Assembly: GCA_965204085.1 (NCBI GenBank) | Contig: CBDBEE010000003.1 | Span: forward strand, 1,068,173-1,132,172 | Source: Candidatus Poribacteria bacterium | GTDB taxonomy: Bacteria; Poribacteria; WGA-4E; JAJDTR01 | Direction: 5' to 3' | Length of the DNA stretch: 64,000 nucleotides | Shown: positions 14,548-30,958 of the stretch, piece by piece | Layout of the letters: the number at the start of each line of letters is the position of its first letter | Position numbering within the stretch: position 1 is the first letter of the stretch | The notes under the pieces: generated by a model | What the model was told of the DNA's origin: nothing | Database searches by the model: none | What the model saw: only the letters and a program-made list of their open reading frames with translations | Translations under genes and position numbers: made by a program

Positions 14548-15003
14548 TTGGAATCACTACAGAAATCGGTTCAATCTGTCATCAACGACGGACGAATAGG
14601 CAGCCCGGTGTTCGTGCGTTGCCTGTTGCAATCCCCGCACGCGGACGAAGATACCGTTAGAGCAAGCGCTGCACTCGTGAATATTGCGAATGCCTGGATG
14701 CCGTCATCGCCTGAGCAGATCTACGCGCAGCAGAGTCAGGATGGAACTCAGTCCACAACGATGATCAAATACGCAGGTGGACAGACGGCTCTGCTTAGCG
14801 TGAATCGCGTTGCAGCCAATCAGGAGGAATCCATAGATTTGGCTTTAGTCGGAAACAAAGGGGCAGTTTATCACGAAACTCCGCGTGGGCAGTATCGGTT
14901 GATGAGAGCCTCGATCCGACTCGATGATAAGGGCAACCTCTCTGATCTGATTGGTCAGGCAATTGCGTCGGGAGAACCTGTAAACTTGAGGAGTGAGGAG
15001 TAA
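14548..15003 (+). CDS. Hypothetical protein resembling a stand-alone Gfo/Idh/MocA C-terminal domain
   Basis: AAGGAG RBS and TTG start. Its stop lies 1 nt before the ATG of the next oxidoreductase gene. Sequence pattern GRIGSPVFVR...ALLSVN resembles the dimerisation/C-terminal domain of that family. Confidence 0.45.
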   Translation: MESLQKSVQSVINDGRIGSPVFVRCLLQSPHADEDTVRASAALVNIANAWMPSSPEQIYAQQSQDGTQSTTMIKYAGGQTALLSVNRVAANQEESIDLALVGNKGAVYHETPRGQYRLMRASIRLDDKGNLSDLIGQAIASGEPVNLRSEE

Positions 15004-15004
15004 C

Positions 15005-16150
15005 ATGGACAGTCAAGAGAAGTACGGTGTATTGATAATTGGCGGAAATCGATCTCACCAGGAAGGTTATTCGCGTACTTTCGCCGCAGACCCGCGATGC
15101 CGGCTCATCGCGTCGTCCGATGAGCGGGATGCGCCACCCGATCGTGTTGAGCTGAATCGCGCACTTGCCGAAGAATTGGATATTCCTTACATACCGGACT
15201 TGGATGAGGCGTTGGCGCGAGACGACGTGCATATTGTTTGTTCATGTGTGGAGACCGAGCGGCGCGGGCGCGTAGGTGCTCGGTGCGCGGAGGCGGGGAA
15301 GCACGTCTATCTGGACAAACCGCTTGCGTTAAACCCCAACGACGCGGCGAAGATTGTAGCGGCGGTGAAGCGAGCCGGTGTCCGCACCCAGATGTACTCT
15401 AACATTCATGATCCGGCGGCGCAAGCAGCGCGTCAGGCATTGAATCGCGGGGACATCGGCGAACTTCGCGCCATCCACTGTGACGTGGTCTTTGCCAAGG
15501 GTCACCCGGGGTCTGCGCCGGTGGGCAACAGGCGCATAGAAAAACCTAACGTGGAACGATACACCTTTGTCGATGCTAAGCGGGAGATGTTTGATATCGG
15601 CGTCTATGCGGTCGCTATGGTGAATTGGTTGACTCGCAAGAAGGTAAAAACCGTGTACGCGAACACCGGCAATTACTTCTTCAAGGGACACTTCGATCGC
15701 GATGTGGAAGATTTTGGAGCAATGGTATTAACCTTGGAGGACGGTGTCACCGCGACGGTCGCCGGAGGTCGATTTGGATGGCTGAGTCACCCTCAAGGCG
15801 GTATGCGGGGGCTGCACATCGTCGGGACGCGGGATACCTTGACATTTGACCCTTCGAAATCACATTTGGAGGTCTTCGCCGATGAACCCGTTTTTCAGCC
15901 GCCTCCGCCTCATCCCTTGGATCCGACGGGAATGTGGGGAAGTACCCAAACCAAATCCACCGGACCACCGAAACGACAATGGGTTTCCGTCAGTGACGGA
16001 CAGGGCCGGGACGAAATTGCCTCGTTTGTTGACTGTGTCGAAAACGGAGTGGAAAGCGAAATGAACGCCGAAATGGCGGCACCGTCGATCTCGGTGATTA
16101 CGGCGGCGTTTCAGTCGGCGGCAACCGGAAAGGTTGTCCAAATCGACTAA
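15005..16150 (+). CDS. Gfo/Idh/MocA family oxidoreductase
   Basis: N-terminal Rossmann motif (YGVLIIGGNRSH), EKP-like motif (VYLDKPLA), C-terminal alpha/beta domain. Confidence 0.8.
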   Translation: MDSQEKYGVLIIGGNRSHQEGYSRTFAADPRCRLIASSDERDAPPDRVELNRALAEELDIPYIPDLDEALARDDVHIVCSCVETERRGRVGARCAEAGKHVYLDKPLALNPNDAAKIVAAVKRAGVRTQMYSNIHDPAAQAARQALNRGDIGELRAIHCDVVFAKGHPGSAPVGNRRIEKPNVERYTFVDAKREMFDIGVYAVAMVNWLTRKKVKTVYANTGNYFFKGHFDRDVEDFGAMVLTLEDGVTATVAGGRFGWLSHPQGGMRGLHIVGTRDTLTFDPSKSHLEVFADEPVFQPPPPHPLDPTGMWGSTQTKSTGPPKRQWVSVSDGQGRDEIASFVDCVENGVESEMNAEMAAPSISVITAAFQSAATGKVVQID

Positions 16151-16230
16151 CGAAACTCCGAAAACCCGAACGATGCTCGCCTCCGTGCTGTGTAGGGACG
16201 GGGCATGTACCAAGACATTCAGGAGGAGGT

Positions 16231-16855
16231 ATGGCACGTGCTGTATTGGTTACATTCGCGGTGATATTTTTAGCAGCGACCAAAGTTTCTGCGGGACAAA
16301 TGGAAGATGTCGTTTACCTTGAGAATGGAGGAATTGTGCAGGGAACGATCCTTGAGCAGATTCCTGACGAGTCGTTGAAAATAAGGCGGGGAGACGGTAA
16401 AGAGTTAAGTATAGGATGCGCGATATTGTGCGAATTTCAAGAGAGCCCGTCCTTGAATCGCGAACCTTTATCCAGAAGAAAAACCCGATGGTAGCGCTCG
16501 GCTTATCATTTCCAATCGTGGGCTCCGGACAGTTCTACAATGGGGAGTACACGAAGGGAGTCGAGTAGGTCTAGGGCTTGTACTCAGCGCGGGTAGCGAC
16601 AACGTGGACAACCCGGATGGAAATCTCGACGCAGACAATGACGATTGGAGGAGTATCCCCGGTTATGTGCTTTTCCTCGGAGGGGCTGTTTGGGCGCTGA
16701 ATGACACGCCAATGTCAGCCAATAGAATCAATCGGCAAAACCTGTGGGTTTCCCACGGGCATTTAATTGAGCTTGACGGCGGACGAGCGGCACTTGGAAT
16801 CGACCCCGTAACATCGCGCAATAGATTGGGCACCGTGCAAACCCTGCGGATTTAG
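16231..16855 (+). pseudogene. Disrupted gene for a small secreted/membrane protein (two frame changes)
   Basis: The signal peptide plus VVYLENGGIVQGTILEQIPDESLKIRRGDGKELSI continues in another frame (MRDIVRISRE...KKNPMVALGLSFPIVGSGQFYNGEYTKG), then in a third (VGLGLVLSAGS...IPGYVLFLGGAVWALNDTPMSANRIN). Confidence 0.55.
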
Positions 16856-17169
16856 ATGGCGTGTGCATTTTTTGGAGATAGCTTCGAGTAGGACAGCAAC
16901 GCCCTCCTCCTAAAATGACAGTAATTGTTTAGTCCATTGACTCCTTGCGGCGAATACAAGTTGCTCCCTTGATCCCTCCCACATATAATCCAAGAATGCC
17001 CCGCTGCCGATAGTCAGGCGCGATATACTGCCAAACTAATATTGCCACTCGTTTTGGCTGAACCAAACAGTTACAAATGACGATTATGGGCGCTCGCAAA
17101 TAGCGTCAATTGAGTCTTTCCAATGCGAGGAAAGGTCTCTATCGTATTTGCTATTCACTCACTTGATCA

Positions 17170-20109
17170 TCAGTATCCGATTCGATACAGGAACTTGATG
17201 TTGCGCCCCGGTTCCGGCATTACCGCTTTGATTCTTGAAAGGTGTTGTCGATATTCCGTGTCAAGGAGGTTATCGATTGCGAACACCGCTTGATGTTGGA
17301 GTCCCCAAACTGAGAACAGATACTGGCAGCCCATATCATAGGCGACGTATCCGTCGGTGGGCTCCTCAAATTCGCCTAACCGGTTCTGCGAATCCGAGAA
17401 TCGCGCCGTTATGTGAAGGTTCAGCGGCTCTGTCACATACCGGAGTGCTAATTTTCCGTTGAGGGGTGGGATTCGTTCAATGGGCACGTCACTGTCCTTT
17501 AAAGTCCCTCTAACGTAGCTCGTGCGCGCTTGCGCGTACACTCGTGGAACAATCTCGGCGTCAACGCTCAACTCGGCGCCGTCAAGGACGGCATCCAGTC
17601 CCCTGTATTGATAGATCCACAACCACCCCGCGCCGCCGGCGCCCCACTCCTTTTCACCGGTGTTTGCCGGAATCAGATAACCGTAAATCTGGTTGCTAAA
17701 AAGGGCTAGATTCAGTTTTACCCGATTTTGCGAATAGCGCAGAAACACCTCCGTTCCCCAACCGTTCTCGGTGCCGAGATCGGAATTGCCGATTTCGTAG
17801 GAGTGGACCGCCAGGTGAGGGCCATCCGAGAAAAGTTCCTCAATTCCGGGAGCACGGAAGGTTTTCATCATCGTTGCGCCCGCCTTTAAATCGCCTGTCC
17901 AATGGTAGATGCTAGACACGGCGCCTGACACGCCTCCGAAGTTTCGGCGTTGTACCGTTCCCGCCTTGGTCACTCTGCCCGTCTTAAACGGTTCAACTCG
18001 CTTGAAGTCGTAGCGAACTGCACCTTGCAGAGTGAAGTCGCTAACTTTTCTCTGATTAAAGTAGAAGCCCGCGATAGAAATCTCCCGTGTGTGCGGCGTC
18101 CAGAAGAATCCCCCGGTCGAATGATCGCGGTATTCGCTCCATATTCCGGTGATGGCGTCATCAGACAGACGAGCAATCGCGGACACATTGGAGGTCAACG
18201 CAATAAACTCGGTGCCGAGCGTGTTGTTGGATTCAAACTCCCGATGTTGATAGCGCGTGTGAGTTGAGTGAAGTTTCAACTTCTCAAGGAGCGATCCGTT
18301 GATCGAATACTCAAGGTTGCTTTCATACCGCTGGCGTTCGAGCTCAATGTCGACTCCCGAGATGTGTCCTTCCGGTGACCCGGGAATTCCGTAGTCGGAC
18401 GTGTAGCTGCCCCCTGACACACCAACGTGCCCCCAATCCTTGACCATGGAAGCGCCGCTTGAAAAATTGGTAGTTGATAGTGACGTGTTCTCCACGACGC
18501 CAACGGGAGTATGCGTATCATCAGCAGTACGGTGATTCCACGCCAGCCGCCATGCAGTGTCACCGATTGGAACCGTCAATCCTGTTGTCGCGGTAATTCC
18601 CGAATTGACCGACTCACTCTGAAACTTGAGGTCTACGGTAGGGTGATGAGGCAGAGACGGCGCGATGGTTTCGCGTTTGACATCTATGACACCGCCGAGA
18701 GTGTTTGAACCGTAGATAAGCGATGCGGGACCACGGATGACCTTGATGTTTTTGGCTGTGCTGGGATCTATAGTAACCGCATGGTCTGCTGAGGACGCCG
18801 ATTTATCGCCGGTGCGCTCGCCATCCTCAAGAATGAGCAGTCGGTCACCGCCCATACCCCGAATGACTGGACGTGCTACCGCCTGTCCCATCGACCGTTG
18901 CGCAATTCCCACCTCATCGCTGAGTGTATCGGCGATGGTTATTCCCATCTTCTCGTCCACTTGCTCTTCGGAGAGTACGAGGTCGGTTGTTTTCTCAAGC
19001 TGTGCGAGGGCATCATCGTCCGGTGTGACCAAGATCTCTTGAAGTTGCACCACGCCGCCCTCTATCGAAACGGTCAATGCCGGTTCATTCGGCGCAGGTT
19101 TAGCGATAAACCCGTGCCGGCGCCCATCCGCTGAATCATAGTGTCCGACGATAGAGCCGTCCTGATTGATACTCCAGCCCTCGGTGCTAACACTGCCCGG
19201 AATCTTAAATTCCTGTAGCCCGTCCCGGAATGTGCCGACATAGGTGAGCGTGACGCCATCCACCGATTTCGCTCGGGAAACGACATCCATTGACTCGTTG
19301 ATACCGTGCACAAAATAGAATTCCAGTCTCTCGGCACGTGAAAGATCGAGAGATATAAACCTGCCATTCCGGGTACGTATGTATGGATGAAACAAGCCAT
19401 CAGCGTCTACGTAACTGCCCACCATGCCACCGCTTGCATTCACGAATTGGGCGTATGTTTCCGATGCCCCGGGGAACTCAATTATTTCGTCTCCCGAAAA
19501 ACCGCGGCGCACCCCGGAAGCATCTATATAATTTCCCGTCAGTGCCCCGGTCGCATTACTAATACCGTATATCTGCGTTTGGACAGCACCTGGAAAATCG
19601 TATTGCCGCAATTCGCCGTTTTCCAAGATAACACCGTGGTAAAGATCGTCGCTGTCTTGGTAGTAGCCGGCAGCTATCCCTGAATTACCGAGCGCATAGA
19701 AAAAGGTGTTCTGTGAACCGGGGAAATCATACGTCGTAAAAACCCCGTCAATGAGCGTAAATCCGATTGTCTTCTCACCATCGGCGCCCCGAGTGTTGCC
19801 TGCGAAATCCCCAAATTCGTTACTCGCAGTCAACTCTAAAAACGCCACGCCGGGGACATCAATAGTCTCAAAAGTATGGTCGGTAGCACCGGTTTCGGCA
19901 ACGGGTTGATTGGCGACCTGTGCATCAGCGTCCCCCAGGATTAATGTGTTGAGACACACCACTAATATAAACGTGTAAAACGGTGTTAAATTCCGAAGTA
20001 TTGTTTTCGTCATGGGACATTCCCTCTTTTGTTTCATCGTTGTTATTCTCGTATAGTAGCATGGAAAGAGCAAGTACAATACAGGTAGTATGAAAAACTG
20101 CTTAATCAT
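17170..20109 (-). CDS. TonB-dependent outer-membrane receptor with an N-terminal tandem-repeat (propeller-like) domain
   Basis: Plug (VARPVIRGMGGDRLLILEDGERTGD...VIRGPASLIYGSNTLGGVIDV), long beta-barrel, C-terminal aromatic residue (YRIGY). Residues ~60-350 are ~45-aa repeats (G.Y.D..G..HGF ... FPG). ATG 20013 (MTKTILRNL..., with signal peptide) is an alternative start. The first 32 codons derive from a duplicated leader. Confidence 0.85.
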   Translation of the reverse strand: MIKQFFILPVLYLLFPCYYTRITTMKQKRECPMTKTILRNLTPFYTFILVVCLNTLILGDADAQVANQPVAETGATDHTFETIDVPGVAFLELTASNEFGDFAGNTRGADGEKTIGFTLIDGVFTTYDFPGSQNTFFYALGNSGIAAGYYQDSDDLYHGVILENGELRQYDFPGAVQTQIYGISNATGALTGNYIDASGVRRGFSGDEIIEFPGASETYAQFVNASGGMVGSYVDADGLFHPYIRTRNGRFISLDLSRAERLEFYFVHGINESMDVVSRAKSVDGVTLTYVGTFRDGLQEFKIPGSVSTEGWSINQDGSIVGHYDSADGRRHGFIAKPAPNEPALTVSIEGGVVQLQEILVTPDDDALAQLEKTTDLVLSEEQVDEKMGITIADTLSDEVGIAQRSMGQAVARPVIRGMGGDRLLILEDGERTGDKSASSADHAVTIDPSTAKNIKVIRGPASLIYGSNTLGGVIDVKRETIAPSLPHHPTVDLKFQSESVNSGITATTGLTVPIGDTAWRLAWNHRTADDTHTPVGVVENTSLSTTNFSSGASMVKDWGHVGVSGGSYTSDYGIPGSPEGHISGVDIELERQRYESNLEYSINGSLLEKLKLHSTHTRYQHREFESNNTLGTEFIALTSNVSAIARLSDDAITGIWSEYRDHSTGGFFWTPHTREISIAGFYFNQRKVSDFTLQGAVRYDFKRVEPFKTGRVTKAGTVQRRNFGGVSGAVSSIYHWTGDLKAGATMMKTFRAPGIEELFSDGPHLAVHSYEIGNSDLGTENGWGTEVFLRYSQNRVKLNLALFSNQIYGYLIPANTGEKEWGAGGAGWLWIYQYRGLDAVLDGAELSVDAEIVPRVYAQARTSYVRGTLKDSDVPIERIPPLNGKLALRYVTEPLNLHITARFSDSQNRLGEFEEPTDGYVAYDMGCQYLFSVWGLQHQAVFAIDNLLDTEYRQHLSRIKAVMPEPGRNIKFLYRIGY

Positions 20110-20261
20110 ATTGTCCTCCGAATAGAGATAGATTGTACTCCCGGCATAAAGACTAATCGAATAGTAGATACAGTTAGATCGTCATTAAGACGACCTAAAA
20201 TTCACCGGGAAACAGGCAGAAATAACTTGGGGAAAACTAAGGTGCATATAAATCTTGTGGA
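20110..20261 (-). promoter_or_regulatory. Conserved ~150-nt intercistronic leader (copy 1; copy 2 at 26453..26605)
   Basis: About 80% identical to the second copy despite being non-coding. Shared blocks are ccaagttatttct, ccggtgaattttaggt and ctttatgccggga. Outer stem tcccgg/ccggga; an inner hairpin covaries (ctaa..ttag vs ctgac..gtcag). Confidence 0.3.
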
Positions 20262-20570
20262 TTAAGCAGCGTAGGCTGGCGGGGCGCGACTACGGATATT
20301 GTCAAGAGGCGCTGTGAATATGAAAGCTAGGTCGAAAGGGGAATGAACTGAAGTGCAAGAACCAAGATTGGGAAGATTTTCAGCGTGGAGCGCAATACCT
20401 AGGTGGTTCGCAATGAAAAAACAAGTAGAACAATCGTGCGATTCGGAATGGCAGTGTTCGTGCTCGTGTTCGTGTACAATCCCGGCAAGGGCAACCGTTA
20501 TCAGATAATAACAGATACCCATCGCAATCACACAGCCGGTAGATATGGTGCGAATTCGATTGTACCGCAA
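20262..20570 (-). CDS. Cys/His-rich single-pass membrane mini-protein (paralog A), possibly DUF2946-like
   Basis: TM segment GCVIAMGICYYLITVALAGIV, then HEHEHEHCHSESHDCSTCFF. About 70% identical to 26606..26914, with synonymous differences upstream of the internal ATG. TTG start with GGAAGGGG RBS. Confidence 0.65.
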   Translation of the reverse strand: MRYNRIRTISTGCVIAMGICYYLITVALAGIVHEHEHEHCHSESHDCSTCFFIANHLGIALHAENLPNLGSCTSVHSPFDLAFIFTAPLDNIRSRAPPAYAA

Positions 20571-20702
20571 GACCGTCTACCCCTTCCAGATGTGCGATAT
20601 TCAAAGAATAGATTTATATTTGGCTCTGCAGAGTTAAGTGTGGAAAATGAAATTAACTTAGGACTTACGCAGTCGATCACTCAAATCTGCCTAATCCGGC
20701 AG

Positions 20703-20890
20703 TAGGGAATAACGATCAAGCGAGTGGATAGCGATCAACTGAGTGGATAACGAAGGAGCAACTGACCCATATGGAAGGCGGTAGAGATCCCATAGAGATC
20801 TTTCAGTGAGGGATCAAACGAGCGGAAAGCAAGTGCGATAGAGATCCGATAGCAAATCCCGTGCGATAGAGATCCCTCGTTATTCCCTAC
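20703..20890. repeat. Composite family-D element bounded by a perfect 14-bp inverted repeat
   Basis: gtagggaataacga (20703-16) pairs with tcgttattccctac (20877-90). The interior holds several degenerate units (gatcaagcgagtggatagc, gatcaaacgagcggaaagcaagtgcgatagagatcc, gtgcgatagagatccc). Confidence 0.7.
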
Positions 20891-21100
20891 AAAAGCCTTG
20901 TCGCAACATCAAATCATTGCCGAAATCATCAAAAGCGTATAGATTGGGGGGTCTCCCAGAACCATATTGGGAATTATTGCAATCAATTTGAACGCAGAGG
21001 GCAAACGCTCCCTCCTGTGGCAAGTCTGATTCGCACACTTAACTCGGAAGAACCGTTCAGTCGCTCGCTTGATCCTCGCCTCGGAGAAAGTGAACGATAT

Positions 21101-21268
21101 ATACTCTGCGTTGGGCATTATTGCGCTTTCTTTTCCAGTGATAATTGATTCTAATAGGACTTACGTAGCACCAGCAGGTGGGGAATCGGAGTTCCCTCTT
21201 ACAAGGGTCACGACCTGGAGATCGCTCCTACAGAAGACGCAATTTCTGACAACGCGGAGTATAATCAA
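21101..21268. repeat. Family-C long MITE-like element, inverted copy
   Basis: Its reverse complement is ~90% identical to 27253..27452 (attatactccgc..tgtcagaaattgcgtcttctgtaggagcgatctccaggtcg.gacc...ctattagaa.caattatcactggaaaagaaagcgcaataat). Confidence 0.8.
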
Positions 21269-21302
21269 GACATCACAGCACTATTGTTCAATCGAATTAG
21301 TA

Positions 21303-22091
21303 TTAGAATCTACCTAACCTGAATACATCTGCTTCTAAACGGTCGAGATTAAGGTGGTAGATGCCGTTAAGCATGCCGTCCTCAAATTCTGCTCCGACGC
21401 GCAGTGTACCGTAAAGCACTATCGGTTCATCCTGATGACTGCGGATTCTCTTTTTTTTCGGAACCTCGACAAATATCCACTCATTAAGGAGCGGAATGGC
21501 ACCGAAACAGCACGCCAATTGGTTTTCGAGCAATACAAAAGATTGAAGGTTGTCATCCTCACCTTCAAGCGGTAACATGAACCCACCAATTTCAATTTTC
21601 TCCCCGTTCAGCGCTTTGATTTGCGGCGGAATATCCTCGTCAAGATTTAGCGTAGCGATGTATGCCGGGTCCTCCAATTTCTCCCAGTTCGGCTCTCTGA
21701 TAACAAAGCTAGTGAGTGTCTCGAAGGTGAGTGACCGATATTCCCCCGTGTGTTTGCCGCTCTTTTTGCTTCCGACCCTTGGGATAGAGGAGACATATGC
21801 AGGAGGAGACTGCGCATCAGTTTGGTTTTCAATTTTAGGCATCGTCTCGTTTTCTGGGTTGGCATCGCCGGGAATTGCCCCAGCGACCGCTAACGGGGCG
21901 CCCTGCACTTCAACGGGCTTAGAGGCTGAATCTGACCCCCCTCCGAATTTCCTAAGCGCGCGAAGCGGATGTGATTTCGGCAACATTTGAGAAACGCCGA
22001 GCGACAATATGACGAGAACTGCGCCGGAAATTGCAAAGTGCAGCCAAAGACTGCGTCGCTTTTTGGTATTGGGTCGTTTCATCTCAATCAC
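21303..22091 (-). CDS. DUF3299-family periplasmic protein
   Basis: N-terminal TM/signal. The C-terminal domain LNGEKIEIGGFMLPLEGEDDNLQSFVLLENQLACCFGAIPLLNEWIFVEV...IVLYGTLRVG matches the DUF3299 pattern as I recall it. Confidence 0.6.
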   Translation of the reverse strand: MIEMKRPNTKKRRSLWLHFAISGAVLVILSLGVSQMLPKSHPLRALRKFGGGSDSASKPVEVQGAPLAVAGAIPGDANPENETMPKIENQTDAQSPPAYVSSIPRVGSKKSGKHTGEYRSLTFETLTSFVIREPNWEKLEDPAYIATLNLDEDIPPQIKALNGEKIEIGGFMLPLEGEDDNLQSFVLLENQLACCFGAIPLLNEWIFVEVPKKKRIRSHQDEPIVLYGTLRVGAEFEDGMLNGIYHLNLDRLEADVFRLGRF

Positions 22092-22098
22092 CTCCTAA

Positions 22099-22632
22099 CT
22101 AATGTTCGTGATGCTCCTCGTGATGTCCCTCGTTACCTTCGGGAAAATCGAAATCAACGTCGGCGAAGGTCTGACCTTTGACCGCAATCGACACGATTTC
22201 CGCATGAAATTCGGCTGTCCCTATAAGCTCATCCAATTGCCCTGAGAATTGAGACGTGTCGCCTTCGGTTTCTCCTGTCAGGACGTTCGCGACGGCTTTA
22301 AGTTGCAAAGTGAGTGGCTGTTCCGAATTCAACCGATTTATCTTAAGACCGATTGTTTTCTCCGTGAGTCGTATCGGTTTTTCCGCCTCGCCATCAAGGA
22401 TGTAGGCGGTTAGTTTTCCGGTTGTTTCTTCTAGCACGAACTCAGCGTGGGCGAATTCGTCGCCCAACACAACTAGCGTGCCGCCATGCGGCGCCGTGTG
22501 CTCATGATGGACATGCGTTTCGTGTGTCCCTTCCTGTTCGCCGTGATGCGCACCTTTTTTCTCACAACCAAGTTGGGCGAAGACAATTGCCAAGATCGTT
22601 GTCCATATCACAACGGTGTATTGGATTTTCAT
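22099..22632 (-). CDS. His-rich lipoprotein (putative periplasmic metal-binding protein)
   Basis: Lipobox AQLGC. N-terminal HHGEQEGTHETHVHHEHTAPHGG and C-terminal EGNEGHHEEHHEH. 8-nt gap to the DUF3299 gene. Confidence 0.65.
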   Translation of the reverse strand: MKIQYTVVIWTTILAIVFAQLGCEKKGAHHGEQEGTHETHVHHEHTAPHGGTLVVLGDEFAHAEFVLEETTGKLTAYILDGEAEKPIRLTEKTIGLKINRLNSEQPLTLQLKAVANVLTGETEGDTSQFSGQLDELIGTAEFHAEIVSIAVKGQTFADVDFDFPEGNEGHHEEHHEH

Positions 22633-22710
22633 GATGATTCTCCTTGCATCAAATCGAGTTCACGGTAAAAGTCGTACTGTTGGCGATAATTTAGCCATAT
22701 CAACAGGTTT

Positions 22711-23169
22711 GTGCGGTATAATTTGTATATGAAAGTAGAGCAAGTATATACGGTCCCAAAAGTGTACGTTGAATCATCCGTTATTAGTGCTTACTTCGAC
22801 GAAAGGGTTGATGTTGTCTCGGCCTCACAACGCCACTGGTCCCGAGTTTGGTGGGACCAAGTGCGAACAGAATATGATGTAGTGATTGGCGTTGCTGTCA
22901 CAGATGAACTATCCCATCCGAGTTTTCCCCACGCACCTTACACGCTTGCTCTAGTTGCTGACATTCCCCGAGTTAGGTTTGCCAACGAAATCCGTGACAT
23001 CGTGAATGCCTACATCACTAGAAATCTCATGCCACAGAATCCTGTAGGGGATGCTCTTCACTTGACGCTGGCTTCATACCACAAATGTGATTACTTACTG
23101 ACATGGAATTGTAAACACAATCCAATACTTGCTACGCCAAACCAGCTAATAGGTGAATTCAATGATTAA
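22711..23169 (+). CDS. PIN-like (VapC-family) toxin-type protein
   Basis: VYVESSVISAYFDE...DALHLTLASYHKCDYLLTWNCKH matches the vYvDtSV..gyFDeE...DAlHiAiAt...D.lvSWNfKH family. The C-terminus after KH seems ~20 aa shorter than I expect. The likely start is an internal ATG (22729). Confidence 0.6.
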   Translation: MRYNLYMKVEQVYTVPKVYVESSVISAYFDERVDVVSASQRHWSRVWWDQVRTEYDVVIGVAVTDELSHPSFPHAPYTLALVADIPRVRFANEIRDIVNAYITRNLMPQNPVGDALHLTLASYHKCDYLLTWNCKHNPILATPNQLIGEFND

Positions 23170-23356
23170 AGATCCCCCCATAGTCGAAGATATCCGTCGC
23201 ATCAGGTGCGCTCTCTCGGAGCAATTTGGCCATGATGTGGAAAAATATATTGATTATTTGCAGAGAAAATATGAGCCTTCAGGTCAAGTTGATATGGTAG
23301 AACCTCCGCCAGAGTCATCACCCGATACAACGAAGGGTAATCAACGCGAGGATTAG
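23153..23356 (+). CDS. Small partner protein of the PIN-like gene (antitoxin-like)
   Basis: Overlaps the PIN gene by 17 nt. DPPIVEDIRRIRCALSEQFGHDVEKYIDYLQ resembles the small proteins usually encoded next to this PIN subfamily. Confidence 0.5.
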   Translation: MNSMIKDPPIVEDIRRIRCALSEQFGHDVEKYIDYLQRKYEPSGQVDMVEPPPESSPDTTKGNQRED

Positions 23357-24618
23357 CTAATTGGCGCTAAATTCGTCGCAACATCCGTCCGGTACGCTTT
23401 GACGGCAGGGACAATGCCGGCGATTGTTCCCAAGATTATAACACAAACCGGCGCGATTACGAATACGGGATGAAGTTTTAACAGGTCCAGAACGATGCCG
23501 GTTTGCGCACGAACAATCGTGGACGCCCCCGTGAAGATTGCGCCATAAACGATAAATCCTATGATGACGCCCAGCGCGGCGATGGAAACGGCTTCCAGTA
23601 CGATTACAGCAAACACTGTTTTGCGGCGGGCGCCGAGCGCCCGCAAAATGGCGAATTCGCGCCGCCGCTCGTTGATCGAGTTATAGACACTTGCTAGAAT
23701 CGAACCTCCTGCTACGACAATGACAAGATAGGATACCAGCGCCAAAATCTGATTCATCCAACCGATCTTGTCAAACAGTCTCGCCATTACCGCCCCGATG
23801 GGCCATGCCAGTGTCGCCACCTTTCCCTGTTTGTTTATGGTTGCGTCCATAATGAAACCGATCTGCGGATTCCGGAACTTCAGCATAACGGCACTCACCT
23901 CCTTATGCTCGTCGGGTATCTCTTGTCCGGGTTGGGGGACATAGTCCTCTCCGTCTCCGCGCAACACATGCCCCTCCATCCGATAAATCCCCTCTATCGG
24001 AATCCAGATGACGCGGTCGGATGGTGAATTGGTCGGTGCAAGCACCCCGACCACAGTATATTGCTCGTCGTGCCGCATCGACTCGTCAAATACCAATCCG
24101 TGATAGGGGGTGAAGTTGTCGCCTACCCTCAAGCCCAACTTCTGTGCGGCATAGCTTCCTAGGACAGCCTCTTGCCGAGTTGGGTCAAAGAAACGCCCAT
24201 TCTCTTGTGTCTGAAACCGAACACCATCGCGGTACTCAAACTTCGTGAACAACGCTGTCGTTGTGCCAACAATGCGGTAACCGTGATAGTTGTCGCCAAG
24301 CGCGTAAGGAACGGCAAGTTCGACACGGGGATCGTTTTTCATCGTCTGGTACATCGCCCACGGGATATTTCCGGGAGAAGTTTCGAGATGAAAGACCGTG
24401 TTCAGCACCAGTTGTAACTGACTGCCGCGTGCGCCGAGAACTGCATCAAAGCCGATCTGACCGCCGGTGAACGCGGCTACGGACTGGGCTTTGATGCCGA
24501 TAACCGCCATGACAAGCCCGGTGCCGAGCGCTATCGACAGCGTCGTTATGAGTGTCGATAGCGCGTGCTGTCGTAGGCTGCGCCGAACGATGAATAATAG
24601 ACCGATTCGCTTTATCAT
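23353..24618 (-). CDS. MacB/LolCE-type ABC transporter permease (FtsX domain with periplasmic core domain)
   Basis: TM1, a large periplasmic domain, then three C-terminal TMs with the FtsX-like block INERRREFAILRALGARRKTVFAVIVLEA. Confidence 0.85.
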   Translation of the reverse strand: MIKRIGLLFIVRRSLRQHALSTLITTLSIALGTGLVMAVIGIKAQSVAAFTGGQIGFDAVLGARGSQLQLVLNTVFHLETSPGNIPWAMYQTMKNDPRVELAVPYALGDNYHGYRIVGTTTALFTKFEYRDGVRFQTQENGRFFDPTRQEAVLGSYAAQKLGLRVGDNFTPYHGLVFDESMRHDEQYTVVGVLAPTNSPSDRVIWIPIEGIYRMEGHVLRGDGEDYVPQPGQEIPDEHKEVSAVMLKFRNPQIGFIMDATINKQGKVATLAWPIGAVMARLFDKIGWMNQILALVSYLVIVVAGGSILASVYNSINERRREFAILRALGARRKTVFAVIVLEAVSIAALGVIIGFIVYGAIFTGASTIVRAQTGIVLDLLKLHPVFVIAPVCVIILGTIAGIVPAVKAYRTDVATNLAPIS

Positions 24619-24717
24619 TCTTCCGCGTGAATTGGAGATTACGAAATGTACCGTTCCATGTTACATATTCGTACTCAATGCGGGATTCGGTAGAATCTGA
24701 AATCCATGCTCTGCTGC

Positions 24718-25380
24718 TCACGCACGATTCACTTGCGCGAAATCTGTTGCTTCCTCAAACTGCCCCAAGACCTCCGCATCATGGCTAACGGTGAGTAACG
24801 CGGCGTTGTTTTCGTGACAAATCTCGCGGATGAGTGCTATAGCTTCGCTGGCGTGATGATAATCCAGATTGCCCGTTGGTTCATCGGCAAGCACCAGACG
24901 CGGTCGATTGGCGATGGCGCGGGCAACCGCAACACGTTGCTGCTGCCCCACGGATAACTGCGGTGATCGATATCCGAGTCGATCGCCAAGGCCAACCCGC
25001 TCAAGCAGGTGCTGCGCAAACCCCGCATCAATTCCCTTCCCAAACATCATTCCAAGCATGACGTTTTCGAGCGCGGTGTAACCGGGTAGCAGATTGAATG
25101 TTTGGTAAATGTAACCGATATAGCTGGCACGCAACCTGTCGCGCCCGGACTCCGAGAGGGCAACCATCTCCTCGCCGGAAACAACGATGCGTCCGCTATC
25201 GGCCCCCAGAATTCCGGCGATGAGATTGAGAAATGTCGTCTTCCCAACCCCGCTGCCGCCCCTGAGCACAATCTGCGCACCCTCCTCCATCTCGAAATGG
25301 GGAATGTCAATGATGCGGGTTTGTAAACCTTCAGGCGAAACGTATGCCTTTTGGAGGTCAGTGATTGTCAAGAGCGGCAT
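24718..25380 (-). CDS. ABC transporter ATP-binding protein (MacB/LolD-like)
   Basis: Walker A GGSGVGKTT, Q-loop, signature LSVGQQQR, Walker B LVLADEPTGNLD. Confidence 0.9.
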   Translation of the reverse strand: MPLLTITDLQKAYVSPEGLQTRIIDIPHFEMEEGAQIVLRGGSGVGKTTFLNLIAGILGADSGRIVVSGEEMVALSESGRDRLRASYIGYIYQTFNLLPGYTALENVMLGMMFGKGIDAGFAQHLLERVGLGDRLGYRSPQLSVGQQQRVAVARAIANRPRLVLADEPTGNLDYHHASEAIALIREICHENNAALLTVSHDAEVLGQFEEATDFAQVNRA

Positions 25381-25392
25381 AACAACTCGTGG

Positions 25393-25839
25393 TCAGTCGT
25401 CCAAGGTTTCGGAGTGTTGACAGGTACGGCAAAGGTGACGATTAACGAGGTGGGCGCTCATAAGAAGGAGACCACCAATAACCGTGAAGATGACTTCGGC
25501 GTTTTCTGAAACGCCTAATCGTGCAATAATGATTAGCAGCAAGGCGCCGCCTAGTATCAAAAATACGCGTCGTTTTCGATGGTTTCGAAAGCCCCAAGCG
25601 AGACTGCCTACCGCGATTCCGCTGGCTGAAGCAACCATCACCAGTTCGGTGGACTCGGCCAAAATGAATCCAAGTCCAATGAGCGGCAGCACAGTTATTA
25701 ACAACGGGGCAGCCATGCAATGGACGGCACAAGCAAATGAGAGGCATGCACCGACGTTATCTACGGTCGAATGATTCAGATGTCTGTTCATTTTTTCCCC
25801 TGTGTCAGGCAGTCTTGTTGGCTGCGTTGCTTTCGGCAT
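25393..25839 (-). CDS. MerC-family-like inner-membrane metal transporter
   Basis: Four TM segments. The first carries CLSFACAVHCMAAPLL (MerC-like Cys/His motif). C-terminal HLCRTCQH. Its stop is 12 nt upstream of the ABC ATPase start. The start may be the internal ATG (MNRHL). Confidence 0.55.
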   Translation of the reverse strand: MPKATQPTRLPDTGEKMNRHLNHSTVDNVGACLSFACAVHCMAAPLLITVLPLIGLGFILAESTELVMVASASGIAVGSLAWGFRNHRKRRVFLILGGALLLIIIARLGVSENAEVIFTVIGGLLLMSAHLVNRHLCRTCQHSETLDD

Positions 25840-25903
25840 ATAGAATGCGCAAAACGCAATCGATGTACCGCTATCATGTCTTGCGCATTCAGATTGTTGT
25901 TCT

Positions 25904-26452
25904 TTATGGACTCACTGTTACCGGAATCGGCAACGCCGCCGTGAAGTCGGCATGGTCCCCGTGAAACAGTTCGAGTTTGATTCCGGTTTGTCCGGCTCGA
26001 CGTCCAATTACCTCAAAGGCGAATTCGTCATCGTGGTGATCTTCCTCGTCATCGTGATCATCTTCTTCTTCGTGGTCTTCGGGAAGGTGAATTTCAATAA
26101 TCGACGTATCGTACTCGGATAGCACCAAGCCGAATGCCTCTTCCTCATCATGGCCGTGGCCCTCCTCTTCCTCCTCGTCGTGGTGATCCTCCGCAAAGGA
26201 AATTTCTTCGCTGTCGTGATTTATGAACACGACGTGCACATCAAGTTCATCTCCAACCTTTAGGGAGATTCCGCCGGTTTCCGTTCCCTGGAATTGACGG
26301 TAGACCTCTTTCTCGTCAACTTCGAGAATAAAACCATCGGCATCGACGTGCATTTCATCGTCATGTTCGTCATCTTCGCCCTCTCCGCACGCGATTAGTA
26401 GCATGGAAAGAGCAAGAAACAATATTGGTAGTTTGAAATACTGCTTAATCAT
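25904..26452 (-). CDS. Acidic, His-rich lipoprotein (putative metal-binding)
   Basis: MIKQYFKLPILFLALSMLLIACGEG lipobox. Runs of D/E/H (DHHDEEEEEGHGHDEEE, EDHEEEDDHDDEEDHHDDE). GGAGGA RBS before ATG 26452. Confidence 0.65.
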   Translation of the reverse strand: MIKQYFKLPILFLALSMLLIACGEGEDDEHDDEMHVDADGFILEVDEKEVYRQFQGTETGGISLKVGDELDVHVVFINHDSEEISFAEDHHDEEEEEGHGHDEEEAFGLVLSEYDTSIIEIHLPEDHEEEDDHDDEEDHHDDEFAFEVIGRRAGQTGIKLELFHGDHADFTAALPIPVTVSP

Positions 26453-26605
26453 GTTGTCCTCCAAATAGAAATAGATTGTGTTCCCGGCATAAAGACTGAC
26501 GGGTAAGTAGATACAGTCAGACGATCATTAAGGTTACCTAAAATTCACCGGGGAATAGGTAGAAATAACTTGGGAAAAAACCGAATTGTAGATAAAACTG
26601 GCGGA

Positions 26606-26914
26606 TTAAGCGGCGGAGGCTGGTGGGGCACGGCTACGGACATTGCTAACTATAGCCGTGGATATAAAAGTCGGGTCGAAAGGCGAATGAATTGAAGTGC
26701 GAAGACCGTGATTGGAAAGACTTTCAGCGTGGTACGCAATACCGAGGTGGTTCGCAATGAAAAAGCAGGTAGAACAATCGTGCGATGCGGAATGCTCGTG
26801 TTCATCGTCGTGATCGTGTACAATTCCGGCAATGGCAACCGTTATCAGATAATAACAGATACCCATCGCAATCACGCAACCGGTAAGATTGATGTAGTTT
26901 CGATTGATCCGCAA
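26606..26914 (-). CDS. Cys/His-rich single-pass membrane mini-protein (paralog B)
   Basis: GCVIAMGICYYLITVAIAGIVHDHDDEHEHSASHDCSTCFFIANHLGIAYHAE. Paralog of 20262..20570 and first gene of the minus-strand operon. Confidence 0.65.
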   Translation of the reverse strand: MRINRNYINLTGCVIAMGICYYLITVAIAGIVHDHDDEHEHSASHDCSTCFFIANHLGIAYHAESLSNHGLRTSIHSPFDPTFISTAIVSNVRSRAPPASAA

Positions 26915-27252
26915 CGCCGTTTACCCTTTCAGAAGTGCGCTGTTTCAGAATTAAGGATATTATTCTAGCACGAGCAGACAGGCTTTGTCCAATTTATTGG
27001 TTAGGACTTATGCAGCGTGTCCATTAGTCCCCTGATAAGGGGATTTAGAGGTTTAAAAACAAAAATCTAACCTTGTGTGCCAAACTTACGTATGTTATGT
27101 TATAACATAACCAAGTCAAAGTCAAGTCAAATATAGAATCTTCTAGGGTCATTTAATTCTCCCGTATTTCGATTTCCCGGTCAAGGCTACTGCGGGGCAA
27201 GATGCCCCTCCTTCGGATTCGGGTTGTTCCAAAATCAGTCAAAAAACGGAAA

Positions 27253-27452
27253 ATTATACTCCGCACTGTCAGAAATTGCGTCTTCTGTAGGATCAAACGA
27301 GCGGATAGCGAGTGCGATAGAGATCTCGCGATCTCCAGGTCGCGACCTTTGTACGAGGGAACTCCGATTCCTGACCTGATGGCGCTACGTAGGTCCTATT
27401 AGAAACAATTATCACTGGAAAAGAAAGCGCAATAATACCCAACGCAGAGTAT
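27253..27452. repeat. Family-C long MITE-like element, direct copy, carrying a nested 35-nt family-D insertion
   Basis: Collinear with the reverse complement of 21101..21268, except for the extra tcaaacgagcggatagcgagtgcgatagagatctc at 27293-27327, inside the core hairpin. Confidence 0.8.
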
Positions 27453-27753
27453 AAATAGCCCTATGGAATCTTCTAGGTAGGTGGTTGTCTCTTTTCGGAA
27501 AGATTGATGCTTGTCATAACTGCAAAATATGACACATTTTAATTGATTGCGTAAGTTCTATTGGTATCAAAAGTCGGATGATCCAAAGAATGAGATTGCG
27601 GTTTACGAGTAGTGGGGAATACCCATCCGACAACCCTCTCAGGATTAGATGTGATTACCTTTGATGGGAGGTTTGAGTTTCTTGACAATCGGACGGCAAT
27701 GGCTTATGCTACGTATCATAAAATTCTACTTAACGAAAGGACGGTAATGTATT

Positions 27754-28440
27754 GTGTATCACTTTGTTTCTGTTGTAATGTTTGTTTGTATTTTGACAAT
27801 TGCAAGTTTTTCGGTGCTTGAGGACAGCCATGCGGGTGAAGACGCCTCCGAAAAAACTCGCATTCCGAGCTGGTTTCGAGTTGACACCGACGCCTTGGGA
27901 ACGCATTTTCTGATTGGGGCTACCCATTCGATGGGAGGTGTTTCGCTAGAGTCTAATATTTTCATTGACGATACTCTCGGCGAGTTTGACCTCGGCGTCT
28001 CAATCCCCGCTGTCAGCGGGGATAGTTTTAGTCTCACGCTGCTGCCCATGCTCGGACTCGGGTTTGACTATAAAGCGCCGGATGGGCCTTCCGCCATCTT
28101 TCCACATCTGTTTGTGTTTTTACCCGCCGGCAAAATCTTTTTCAAATCGTGGACGATTGGGTCCATCCATTCTGTATTCGACGAGGAAAGGGATAACGAA
28201 GTCTACACGCGCAATTATCTCACTTACTCCCTTAACAGGACTGTTGCGGTTGGCCCGCAGTTCGAAACCGTAGTGGGTTTGGGCGATAAGAGGACGGTTT
28301 TCAGCCAGATTCTCGGTGTACGGATCAATATCGGATACGGCGAGAATAACACGCTCGGCATCCTTGCCGGGTATGATACCAAGAAAACGGAGGAACAATC
28401 GGGCTTAACGGGTAGGTTGAGTTTTACGCGCAGGTGGTAG
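27754..28440 (+). CDS. Hypothetical secreted protein, possibly a small outer-membrane beta-barrel
   Basis: Signal peptide, alternating hydrophobic pattern, C-terminal ...GRLSFTRRW ending in an aromatic residue. Confidence 0.35.
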   Translation: MYHFVSVVMFVCILTIASFSVLEDSHAGEDASEKTRIPSWFRVDTDALGTHFLIGATHSMGGVSLESNIFIDDTLGEFDLGVSIPAVSGDSFSLTLLPMLGLGFDYKAPDGPSAIFPHLFVFLPAGKIFFKSWTIGSIHSVFDEERDNEVYTRNYLTYSLNRTVAVGPQFETVVGLGDKRTVFSQILGVRINIGYGENNTLGILAGYDTKKTEEQSGLTGRLSFTRRW

Positions 28441-28524
28441 TGTTATGTCTTTCTCTTAATTTCTACGAGCGTGCGTACGGGAAGAAGCAGAATTTTGATG
28501 AAGGAACTCGGTATCGCCTTGACA

Positions 28525-30102
28525 CTATTTTACAATCACCATCCGCTTCATCTGATCGAAGGTTGGGGTGGACAAGTGGTAGAAATAGATTCCGTTTGAG
28601 ACCTGCTCGCCACTGTTATTGCGGCCATCCCAATAGGCGGCGCGTTCTCGAGTAGAATACTCTCCCGCGGTTTGTTCGCCCAGATCCAACTGCCGCATCA
28701 ATTGCCCGTGAACATTGTAAATGCGAAGCGTAGCGTCGGCGTCGGCACTCAAACGATACGGGATCCAGGTTTCCGGGTTAAACGGATTGGGGAAGTTTTG
28801 CAGCAGCGCCGTCTGCTTGACCCGAGCCAGCGTCGTGACTTTCAATCCAAACAGATCCACGGCAAACGGAGGCGTTCCAAAATCCTCAATGCTGTTATAG
28901 ATGTATGCGGCGTGCCCGTCGCCATTTGGTTTCCCGTCGTGGTTCAGAAAGGGACCGCTATGGGACGCAATAGCCACGGAGTTCTCGCTCATGGAGATCG
29001 CGGAGCCGAAGTGTATATCTTTGGCGCCATCTTCCGGTACGACAGTAACTTTTTCTGCCCAAACCCCGTCGGTTCGAACGAAGGAATAGGCGGCTCCCGA
29101 ACCTCTTGCCGGGTCGTTATGTCCAGGAGCCCCAACGATAACAATGCTCCCGGTGGTTGCGACGCCAAATCCAAAATTGAAGTTCTTTTTTAATTTACCG
29201 GGCGTGAGTTTGGCTTGAAACTTCCAACTTGCTCCGTCGAGCGCGAAGACGTAGGCGGCTCCCGAATCAGTCCCGCCTTCGGAGTCGCGAAACGGCGCTC
29301 CGACCACAATGGTCTTTCCGCCCATGCTGACCGAACTTCCGAACCGGTCGGCTTTCGCGGCATCGGCAGCCACGAGTTTGGCTTGTTCTGCCCACTGAGC
29401 TCCCCTACGCACGAAAACGTAAGCCGCACCGGTAAACCTCGCGCCGCTATGGGTGTGTCCGTTCGCGCCAACCACGGCGGTGTTGCCATGAAGGAAGACA
29501 GATGCGCCGAAAGCATCTCCGCCCGCCAGATCCGAGCCAACTAGCTTCGCCTGCTTCCTCCACGCTGTACCTTCACGGAAGAATACGTAGGCTGATCCGG
29601 AGTCTCTACCTGCGTCATCGTCCTTTGGGACACCGACAATGGCGGTATTCCTGTCAATCGCTACAGAATATCCGAAATTGTCCGCTTTAGTCGGATCGTC
29701 TGCCCCCAGTTTCGCTCGCTGATCCCAGTTTTTGCCCCTCCGAACATAGACAAAGGCTGAACCTGACGTTTCTGTGCCAGCATCGTCATGAGGAACACCG
29801 ATGATCAGGCTGTCGCTGCTGACGGCGACCGACCATCCGACGCTGCCCCCGCCTCGAGGGATGAGTTCCGCTTGTTTTGCCCAGTTTTTTCCATCGAATG
29901 CAAAGACTGTCGCAACGTTTTGAGAAATTGATCCAACAATCACAGTGTTTCCGCTGATAGCGGCGGACAGTTGAGATCCGATGTCGTTGTCGTCGTCGGC
30001 AACCAACTTGATGCCTTGTTTTAACGCCAAAGCGGTATGTGTGAAGGTTGCCAACGCGAAGCCAAGGATTAGACCAAGCAGAATTGACTTTACGTGTTTC
30101 AC
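28525..30102 (-). CDS. FG-GAP/integrin-alpha-like repeat protein with FlgD/T9SS-like C-terminal sorting domain
   Basis: Seven or more repeats of the type D.FG.SVA..GNTA.VGA..DD.....SGAAYVF.R.G..W..QAKL. C-terminus LLQNFPNPFNPETWIPYRL...NGIYFYHL. Confidence 0.8.
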   Translation of the reverse strand: MKHVKSILLGLILGFALATFTHTALALKQGIKLVADDDNDIGSQLSAAISGNTVIVGSISQNVATVFAFDGKNWAKQAELIPRGGGSVGWSVAVSSDSLIIGVPHDDAGTETSGSAFVYVRRGKNWDQRAKLGADDPTKADNFGYSVAIDRNTAIVGVPKDDDAGRDSGSAYVFFREGTAWRKQAKLVGSDLAGGDAFGASVFLHGNTAVVGANGHTHSGARFTGAAYVFVRRGAQWAEQAKLVAADAAKADRFGSSVSMGGKTIVVGAPFRDSEGGTDSGAAYVFALDGASWKFQAKLTPGKLKKNFNFGFGVATTGSIVIVGAPGHNDPARGSGAAYSFVRTDGVWAEKVTVVPEDGAKDIHFGSAISMSENSVAIASHSGPFLNHDGKPNGDGHAAYIYNSIEDFGTPPFAVDLFGLKVTTLARVKQTALLQNFPNPFNPETWIPYRLSADADATLRIYNVHGQLMRQLDLGEQTAGEYSTRERAAYWDGRNNSGEQVSNGIYFYHLSTPTFDQMKRMVIVK

Positions 30103-30322
30103 TGAAATCTCCTTTTGATGTTGGTCGATGTTAGGACGATTTAGCGGCTGTTTATTTTGACCACGATTTCATGAGTATAGAGTTCGATGGCTGGGCATAT
30201 GGAATTCCGCGAGTGACTCAATAGGATCCTTGCATCTGTCCGTGCGTTGGCGCAACCTCGGAGTCGATTAAAGAATAAATTTTATAACGGCGGACCAAGA
30301 GCACGAGAAACGAGCGCATAAA

Positions 30323-30562: not shown

Positions 30563-30665
30563 TTTCCTCAGTGTGTTCTATTGTCGGCTTGACACGTCTC
30601 TTGACAGATTGGTCACGGACGCGCTTGAGATCTCTTACAAAACTGCTTCTAAACTCAACTTTCAA
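30540..30665 (-). pseudogene. Truncated RelE/ParE-family toxin remnant
   Basis: A TTG start overlaps the stop of the upstream 69-aa gene (TTGA). The translation LKVEFRSSFVRDLKRVRDQSVKRRVKPTIEHTEENEKYQIG* matches only the first ~40 residues of RelE/ParE toxins. Confidence 0.5.
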
Positions 30666-30871: not shown

Positions 30872-30958
30872 AACTCGCTCCTAACCTGCCAAAAAATAAA
30901 GCGTGACAAACCTTGCTTCAGTCTGCCACGCTTTACCCTAATCCAACACCTGACTCTG

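Follow-up and report, generated by a model that had tools for sequence, protein, structure and literature searches.

Duplicated heads of two adjacent operons in Candidatus Poribacteria probably encode metal-sensing arrest leader peptides

We analyzed a 64,000-nucleotide stretch of a Candidatus Poribacteria genome (assembly GCA_965204085.1, contig CBDBEE010000003.1, positions 1,068,173 to 1,132,172 of the forward strand), hereafter called the window, in which two similar blocks precede two neighboring operons. These blocks are probably the 5′ control regions of paralogous metal-uptake operons, each of which encodes a metal-sensing arrest leader peptide of the DUF2946 (CruR/CutF) kind. Ribosome stalling, metal sensing, and an involvement of Rho would follow by analogy with studied systems. 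The block in front of the TonB-dependent receptor gene is called cassette B and that at the head of the longer operon cassette A. Positions are those of the window, and all features lie on the minus strand. Genomes (G), loci (L), genera (g), and families (f) of relatives are given by number.

Pairwise alignment and a 30-nt sliding identity profile placed the repeat blocks at about 20052–20610 and 26396–26955, with about 82% identity. A repeat search returned two direct repeat pairs, 20233–20532/26577–26876 (82% identity) and 20076–20236/26419–26579 (84%), in register at an offset of 6343–6344 nt. An exact 21-mer (20054–20074 = 26396–26416) lies at the 3′ edge. The edges are sharp, as identity falls to a random level of 0.3–0.5 beyond the block on either side. 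The cassette match in a search against the whole genome had an E value of 1.7e-149, and contig C1 of the same genome carries two further cassettes that are 96–97% identical to cassettes B and A, respectively. The C1 pair (G000; 1398579–1399145, L015, and 1351671–1352214, L016) lies 47 kb apart in mutually inverted orientation, with the layout as in G001; it reflects a segmental duplication or, alternatively, the presence of a second strain among the assembled sequences. An assembly artefact was rejected as the origin of the repeats, since the cassette pair recurs in many independent metagenome-assembled genomes (MAGs). A mobile element or miniature inverted-repeat transposable element (MITE) was likewise rejected, as the block is coding, lacks terminal repeats, and keeps a syntenic position across genera.

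Each copy contains, in the same order, a −10-like element, a Shine-Dalgarno (SD) sequence, a TTG codon, a 102-codon open reading frame (ORF; the mini-gene), a spacer of 152 or 153 nt, GGAGGA, four bases, ATG, and about 19 codons of the next gene. The mini-genes start with TTG at 20570 (SD GGAAGGGG) and 26914 (SD GAAAGGG), and the next genes with ATG at 20109 (B) and 26452 (A). Identity is 253/309 (82%) in the mini-gene, 122/154 (79%) in the spacer, and 52/61 (85%) over the first 60 nt of the next gene. At the protein level, homology of the next-gene starts covers the first 11–12 codons only (MIKQ[FY]F.LP[VI]L). Copy B carries a 1-nt deletion (ATTG-TAC vs ATTGTTTC), so that the identical 21-mer is read in a frame other than that of the lipoprotein signal peptide. 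A preliminary description of this DNA had reported direct repeats of about 80% identity at 20052–20612 and 26396–26956, holding a ribosome-binding site (RBS), a TTG start, a 102-aa ORF, a spacer, GGAGGA, and codons of the next gene. The repeats are real, and every listed part was found in both copies. The similarity is not confined to the mini-gene, since the spacer and the start of the next gene share it. The proposal that the block is a regulatory or leader unit is supported by its composition, in which a −10 element and a small gene are followed by a spacer and by the sequence where translation of the next gene begins. The coordinates are summarized in Table 1.

Table 1 Features of the two cassettes and adjoining genes in the window.
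Feature	Position	Strand	Basis or remark
Cassette A promoter, sigma-70-like TGGACA-18-TAGAAT with TG extension	26962..26991	-	10/12 matches; best promoter-like site in 16800-27600
Mini-gene A, 102 aa, TTG; transmembrane (TM) helix, HDHDDEHEH cluster, CSTC 26765-26776, RAPP 26621-26632, 4 codons, stop	26606..26914	-	
Spacer A, 153 nt, GGAGGA 26457-26462	26453..26605	-	79% identical to spacer B
Operon A lipoprotein, acidic, His-rich, lipobox LIAC	25904..26452	-	Translation, Pfam, synteny in two genera
Cassette B degenerate −10-like element TATAAA	20613..20618	-	5′ edge of repeat; aligned with TGnTAGAAT of the C1 paralogue and relatives
Mini-gene B SD GGAAGGGG	20580-20587	-	Sequence
Mini-gene B, 102 aa, TTG; TM helix, HEHEHEHCH cluster, CSTC 20421-20432, RAPP 20277-20288, AYAA, stop	20262..20570	-	
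C>G bubble, candidate Rho-utilization region	20230..20470	-	C 0.31-0.40, G 0.12-0.17; 78-nt sliding composition
P1 5′ strand CUGCUUAAUC, last codons and stop of mini-gene B	20260..20269	-	Exact complement of 20098-20107 GAUUAAGCAG
Spacer B, 152 nt, SD GGAGGA 20114-20119	20110..20261	-	
Candidate anti-SD GUUUUCCCC in spacer B	20229-20237	-	Fold
Stem P4, spacer B	20203-20212 with 20138-20146	-	Kept in g1 and g6; G-C/G-U/C-G changes
Relic, 5′ end of deleted His-rich lipoprotein paralogue, 19 codons MIKQFFILPVLYLLFPCYY, receptor frame	20053..20109	-	Alignment to copy A
TonB-dependent receptor, own start ATG 20037 or 20013, signal peptide ...LILGDADA/Q	17170..20037	-	Pfam Plug and barrel

The N-terminus of the mini-protein reads MRYNRIR (MR.NR in both copies), followed by about 20 hydrophobic residues (VIAMGICYYLITVALAGIV), from which the membrane helix was judged by eye. 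In both copies an H-x-H cluster (HEHEHEHCHSESH or HDHDDEHEHSASH) is followed by D-C-S-T-C-F-F-I-A-N-H, and the ORF ends with RSRAPP, four codons, and a stop. The gap between CxxC and RAPP is 44 residues in both window copies and 44–45 residues in all surveyed cassettes, which come from four families. Alignments of relatives gave CxxC, F.AN(H), and (R/Q)SRAPP as the invariant columns; C-x-x-C is invariant across 38 cassettes plus distant relatives, and RAPP in all except G004_B and G008a_B. The two copies are 74% identical as proteins, with a dN/dS of 0.52 between them and of 0.2–0.9 between orthologues. We therefore judge from the sequences that the mini-genes are real and under purifying but loose selection, which fits a peptide in which motifs and spacing alone matter. 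That both copies are under selection had been proposed in the preliminary description and is supported by this dN/dS and by reading frames that, over an order, remain open at identities as low as about 45%. Its term for the product, a Cys/His membrane mini-protein, was correct for the helix and the Cys/His motifs and missed the CxxC...RAPP arrest-leader identity. In two genera, nearly all cassettes use TTG to start the leader gene, and selection has kept this weak start codon. In G003, G004, G006, and G007, a different sequence, in which ATG is the start codon, takes the place of the 5′ untranslated region and the beginning of mini-gene B.

Of 61 genomes in the same order, 37 carry the mini-gene, most often twice at a distance of 6–7 kb, and the frames are open at 45–50% identity. 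All 39 named matches were Candidatus Poribacteria MAGs. Sequencing runs containing the locus were sponge, coral, and marine metagenomes, and one coral metatranscriptome contained only short contigs of relatives, whose ends and depth were unsuited to locating transcription starts. A profile search of 1.84 billion representative proteins returned 16 clusters alone, every one with the layout of the mini-protein.

DUF2946 proteins are defined by CXXC and RAPP at a spacing of 45 ± 1–2 residues, by an export signal, and by genes that lead metal operons, which frequently include a TonB receptor gene (PMC9426467); the studied members are CruR of Bordetella pertussis (PMC9426467) and CutF of Rhodobacter capsulatus (PMC9973294). 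The locus has the CXXC, the RAPP, the spacing, the N-terminal membrane segment, and the head position in metal operons. In Pfam searches, copy A matched DUF2946 below threshold (17.5 bits, E = 0.0075), and copy B had no DUF2946 match. DUF2946 nonetheless ranked first among Pfam families in 5 of 15 members and in most distant relatives, with a best score of 22.9 bits, and a six-frame search of the genome for DUF2946 placed the two A-type copies best (16 bits). One member of a bridging Poribacteria clade, P0025, is annotated as PF11162, and the window profile matched this clade with an E value of 5.7e-7. The mini-genes are thus read as diverged CruR/CutF-type leader peptides with every defining feature bar the Pfam score. 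This reading would extend the CruR/CutF class of metal-sensing arrest leaders to an uncultured sponge- and coral-associated phylum and add to it a His-rich variant that escapes detection by Pfam. Annotation will probably overlook the mini-genes or label them hypothetical.

Operon A (26914 to 21303) comprises the mini-gene and genes for the His-rich lipoprotein, a MerC-like permease, an ATP-binding cassette (ABC) ATPase, an FtsX/MacB-type permease, a 177-aa protein, and a DUF3299 protein. In operon B, the mini-gene is followed by the TonB-dependent receptor gene, as identified by Pfam. The order of both operons is common to genus g1 and to genus g6, which belongs to another family. In families f2, f3 (g4 and g11), and f4, the gene after the mini-gene is in every case that for the His-rich lipoprotein, and many of these genomes have a TonB receptor gene behind it. 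Further cassettes before metal-related operons in relatives, which the preliminary description had suggested looking for, are therefore present: they head lipoprotein/TonB-receptor operons across families.

We compared the cassettes with known systems. CruR (Bp2923, DUF2946/PF11162) is encoded 5′ of the TonB-dependent transporter BfrG in B. pertussis (Roy et al. 2022, PMC9426467) and is likewise a small exported or membrane leader heading a TonB-receptor operon. Its intergenic region is also long (162 bp, vs 152/153 nt here), and a C>G bubble also begins in the 3′ part of the leader gene and extends into the spacer (PMC9426467). CruR is a proteobacterial protein of 145 aa, whereas the leader of Candidatus Poribacteria has 102 aa, falls under the Pfam cut-off of the family, and contains an extra HxHxHxH cluster between the helix and CxxC; here two diverged copies head adjacent operons, and Rho dependence is predicted. 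CutF of the R. capsulatus cutFOG operon (PMC9973294; bioRxiv 10.1101/2025.02.05.636593) is a leader of the DUF2946 family that, like the mini-protein, has a Cys motif and, at its C-terminus, a Pro-rich stall site. For CutF, the stall has been proposed to unwind a stem masking the next RBS, and in our cassettes the leader 3′ end and the spacer are also predicted to pair with the next SD and start region. In contrast to CutF, where high copper turns on a detoxifying oxidase, the downstream genes here look like uptake genes, and the predicted pairing is weak and is not opened in silico by a modeled footprint. ApdA and ApdP (PMC7897499, PMC10951233) are also small leaders that begin with a membrane or export segment and carry Arg-Ala-Pro-Pro close to the C-terminus, but they monitor protein export, control Sec/YidC components, and have neither a CxxC/His site nor a link to metal operons. 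The CruR/CutF leader family is thus known; specific here are the Poribacteria lineage, the His cluster, the concerted pair of cassettes, and a deletion scar, described below, that gives the receptor a second, possibly regulated start.

The spacers were examined for RNA structure. Blocks conserved across genera are a U run, UUUCCCGG...CCGGGA(A/G), AUCUAUyUnUAU, and the SD. The region 20085–20285, containing spacer B, folds with a minimum free energy of −46.2 kcal/mol (z = −2.29). In duplex P1, the 3′ strand (GAUUAAGCAG) consists of the G of the ATG and codons 2–4 of the next ORF. P1 has an energy of −15.6 kcal/mol and a z score of −2.1 to −3.1 in the B copies of g1, and is kept in the consensus fold of this genus; it is compensated in G002_A and G006_A (CGUUUAAUC/GAUUAAACG) and uncompensated in G003_A and G000C1a_A. 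In other genera, the SD and its spacer pair with the codons that immediately follow RAPP, and the differences among G023 (GUAUUCUUC/GGAGAAUAC), G053a (GUGUCCUCC/GGAGGACAU), and G016 are compensatory. A hairpin between the SD (−14..−4) and the U-tract codons 4–7 (+12..+22) had 82% of cells paired over 48 distinct start regions, compared with 39–65% in slid controls, and showed C-G/A-U covariation at −4/+12. In the predicted folds, pairing of the SD is about 80% in all cassettes. A scan of the spacers for intrinsic terminators found none, and an Rfam scan of 15000–32000 at E ≤ 1 detected no known RNA family. At the orthologous B loci of five genomes, the whole region is a mosaic of 85–100% identity, so that conservation of the spacer or leader above background is uninformative there.

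The C>G bubble extends from about nt 100 of the mini-gene to the first 30–60 nt of the spacer. It has a counterpart in copy A at about 26575–26815 and was seen in both window cassettes (WIN_A and WIN_B) and in the g6 cassettes G030_A and G039_B. The genome encodes Rho (Rho_RNA_bind match, 103.8 bits).

Insertions of 100–950 nt occur in the spacers between leader and next gene in G002_A, G008b_A, G006_B, G030_B, G035_A/B, G047_B, and G053a/b. They are MITE-like, with the ends TAGGACTTACGCA... and ...GCGTAAGTCCT, and always landed after the U run. Their motif GCGTAAGTCCTAA is found just 5′ of both window cassettes (~20654–20670 and ~26998–27012).

Arrest at RAPP is an established mechanism (PMC10951233). 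In the proposed mechanism, a ribosome stalled at RAPP would have the CxxC/His site just out of the exit tunnel and would cover the C-rich, G-poor 3′ leader RNA and the last leader codons. The stall may keep Rho off and hold open the pairing of the leader 3′ end with the start region of the next gene, so that the downstream genes would be on: those for the lipoprotein, MerC, and MacB-type ABC proteins in operon A and that for the TonB receptor in operon B. Metal binding to the nascent peptide would release the stall; the ribosome would then terminate, Rho would gain access, the spacer would refold, and expression would fall. The assignment of the stall to the on state and of metal to the off state is taken from CruR and suits genes that look like uptake genes. 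We rank Rho-type attenuation first, with RBS masking as a possible second layer.

Several results weigh against this reading. The gathering threshold of DUF2946 (23.7 bits) is reached by neither window copy. Some B copies look relaxed: RSPP replaces RAPP in G004_B and G008a_B (L036 and L054), no B copy was found in G005 or G009, and the spacer of G006 carries an insertion. Copy B of the window has only a degenerate −10 element. Spacer A is as stable as its shuffles (z = −0.10), and the local hairpin over the SD has low stability (−2.6 to −6.7 kcal/mol), with z scores that are not significant. An imposed ribosome footprint, at RAPP or at the stop codon, opened the SD in no general way (n = 41; mean unpaired 0.20 with and without, p = 0.46–0.95). 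A gain appeared in the g1 B copies only, for a wider start region, and was modest (0.25–0.29 to 0.36–0.43).

The footprint result is the reason why a purely translational switch of the CutF type was not made our preferred explanation. In such a switch, the stalled ribosome would melt the pairing over the next RBS and start, and Rho would be uninvolved. Much of the RNA evidence agrees with it: the leader 3′ end pairs with the start region of the next gene, as an exact 10–11 bp duplex between stop region and codons 2–4 in g1 and through the post-RAPP codons with compensatory differences in other genera; the SD/U-tract hairpin exceeds its slid controls and covaries; the SD is predicted to be mostly paired in every cassette; and CutF itself provides a precedent (bioRxiv 10.1101/2025.02.05.636593). 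However, the hairpins are weak, footprint-constrained folds show no general opening, and the C>G bubble is left unexplained. Moreover, in CutF the metal induces the stall and a detoxification gene is turned on, which is the wrong sign for uptake genes. We therefore consider the translational switch alone unlikely. It is far less probable still that the mini-protein is a small membrane metal-binding subunit or chaperone of transport, with an incidental RAPP and an ordinary intergenic spacer. Such a role would account for the TM helix with its His/Cys ligands and for a mini-gene that always adjoins the genes for the His-rich lipoprotein and transporters. It does not agree with conservation limited to motifs and spacing, the rather high dN/dS (0.3–0.9), the TTG start codon, or a RAPP located 4 codons from the stop and 44–45 residues past CxxC in every lineage, and CruR, which has the same layout, was shown to act as an upstream ORF (PMC9426467). 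If the arrest-leader interpretation is correct, the diverged natural pair, with its motifs, spacing, and spacer elements kept, would serve as a ready-made mutational map.

As for the sensed metal, our interpretation leans towards zinc, or cobalt/nickel, zinc being a guess; copper is possible. Pointers in this direction are the leader's additional His cluster, the abundant His of the lipoprotein, a split MacB-type ABC transporter with DUF3299, whose layout resembles the Zur-regulated PA4063–4066/Zrg systems, and a palindrome (GTTATGTTATAACATAAC) with half-sites similar to Zur boxes. PA4063–PA4066 of Pseudomonas aeruginosa and ZrgABCDE of Vibrio are Zur-regulated (PMC8561739, PMC11481552) and share with operon A a His-rich periplasmic protein, a split MacB-type ABC system with separate ATPase and FtsX-type permease, and a small periplasmic protein. 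Operon A differs in the added MerC-like permease and in the leader gene at its head. Neither its DUF3299 protein nor its His-rich lipoprotein matched the solved PA4066/PA4063-type structures in sequence, and the resemblance to zinc systems is therefore confined to gene layout.

The extension of cassette B into the receptor ORF was analyzed next to the receptor's own start. The long receptor ORF (20109–17170, 979 aa) opens with MIKQFFILPVLYLLFPCYY and has internal Met codons at 20037 and 20013; GAGGGA lies 8 nt 5′ of the ATG at 20013. A basic stretch (TRITTMKQKRECPMTKTILR) separates its two hydrophobic segments, and the receptor signal peptide and the ADA/Q cleavage site are intact. The receptor orthologues of G003 and G005 begin at MKQKR without the leader. 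The 19 codons stand in the receptor frame in G000, G001, G002, G004, and G008, with an ORF of 979 aa in all, and genus g6 has a comparable in-frame junction after 15 codons (MFTCFFRCTLLLITF joined to TVKW...). In G003 and G007 of genus g1, a longer, decayed lipoprotein remnant lies between mini-gene B and the receptor gene; GGAGGA is changed to GTAGGA or GTGGGA, codon 3 is TAG, and the receptor of these two genomes begins at its own MKQKR. Taken together, copy B is best read as the head of an old mini-gene–lipoprotein–receptor operon whose lipoprotein gene was deleted down to 19 codons; it reaches into the receptor ORF because the deletion left the RBS and these codons in the receptor frame. 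Either start would presumably yield the same mature receptor, so the N-terminal extension may be tolerated. The fusion to a receptor with its own Met and signal peptide had been noted in the preliminary description and holds, except that 11–12 codons rather than about 20 are shared as protein. The 979-aa ORF with two signal-like segments is an annotation trap that a deletion scar would explain.

Other in-frame run-ons of upstream genes were observed. In G012 (L058:947-3541) and G021 (L061:934-3552), a MerC-like domain and a complete TonB receptor (CarboxypepD_reg, Plug, and barrel) share one open frame of 864 and 872 aa, respectively. In G053 (L069:3386-5860), the start of the His-rich lipoprotein and the TonB receptor form one 824-aa ORF in which the lipobox Cys is changed to Tyr (FAAYGEDD).

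A maximum-likelihood tree clustered the A and B copies by genus (support 100/97 each), with the A/B split inside each genus. Constraining all B copies to one clade cost 82 log-likelihood units (p of the approximately unbiased (AU) test 0.0013), for a group that was named after the tree was seen. Both operon types and their synteny are older than the divergence of the genera. The pattern is most simply read as gene conversion between the operon heads, confined to the stretch in common, which would explain the sharp repeat edges as well; independent duplications are a possible alternative. In the preliminary description, a portable leader module had been copied in front of an unrelated second operon. 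The gene order in f2, f3, and f4 and the remnants in G003 and G007 do not support this. A version in which the module was copied, once or repeatedly, before a pre-existing receptor gene agrees with the clustering of copies by genus instead of type, with the rejection of a single B clade by the AU test, and with a G005 receptor gene that has no cassette. In G005, homology to the window starts exactly at TACGAGAATAACAA, at the 20052 edge of the repeat just past the relic. However, an IS630-like transposase gene lies exactly at this junction, upstream of the receptor gene, and makes cassette loss likely there; the outgroup families f2 and f4 have the mini-gene–lipoprotein–receptor order; the remnants in G003 and G007 are decayed lipoprotein sequence; and the g1/g6 synteny is more simply explained by one old pair with gene conversion. 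We regard the copied module as improbable. Under gene conversion, operon heads could evolve in concert and be reused after gene loss.

We also suggest, as a tentative and rather doubtful extension, that the first 15–20 lipoprotein codons are part of the RNA switch, through pairing of codons 2–4 with the leader stop region and of U-tract codons 5–6 with the SD. That might explain why these codons, still in frame and behind an intact GGAGGA, outlasted the rest of the lipoprotein gene, which two genera lost independently. On this view, the receptor would borrow a start site under control of the stall, and conversion between the cassettes would preserve their match and let a single metal, probably zinc in view of the extra His cluster, set both operons.

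The upstream sequences were also inspected. A TGnTAGAAT/TATAAT element is present at the matching place in most A and B cassettes of relatives, and the promoter scan of 16800–27600 made no call at the −10-like element of cassette B. The 18-bp perfect palindrome GTTATGTTATAACATAAC lies at 27094–27111, about 190 nt 5′ of mini-gene A, and overlaps two promoter-like sites (TTGACT-N16/17-TAACAT). It is kept at the equivalent place in six g1 genomes, namely G000 (both loci), G001, G003, G004, G006, and G007. Its core TGTTATAACA occurs 10 times in the 6.58-Mb genome, and its half-sites are similar to the Zur boxes of Caulobacter.

The receptors of g1 have an N-terminal domain of about 300 aa (residues about 65–340 of the product of window 17170–20013), where those of g6 have CarboxypepD_reg instead. 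Repeats related to this domain occur in other large proteins of G006 and G007.

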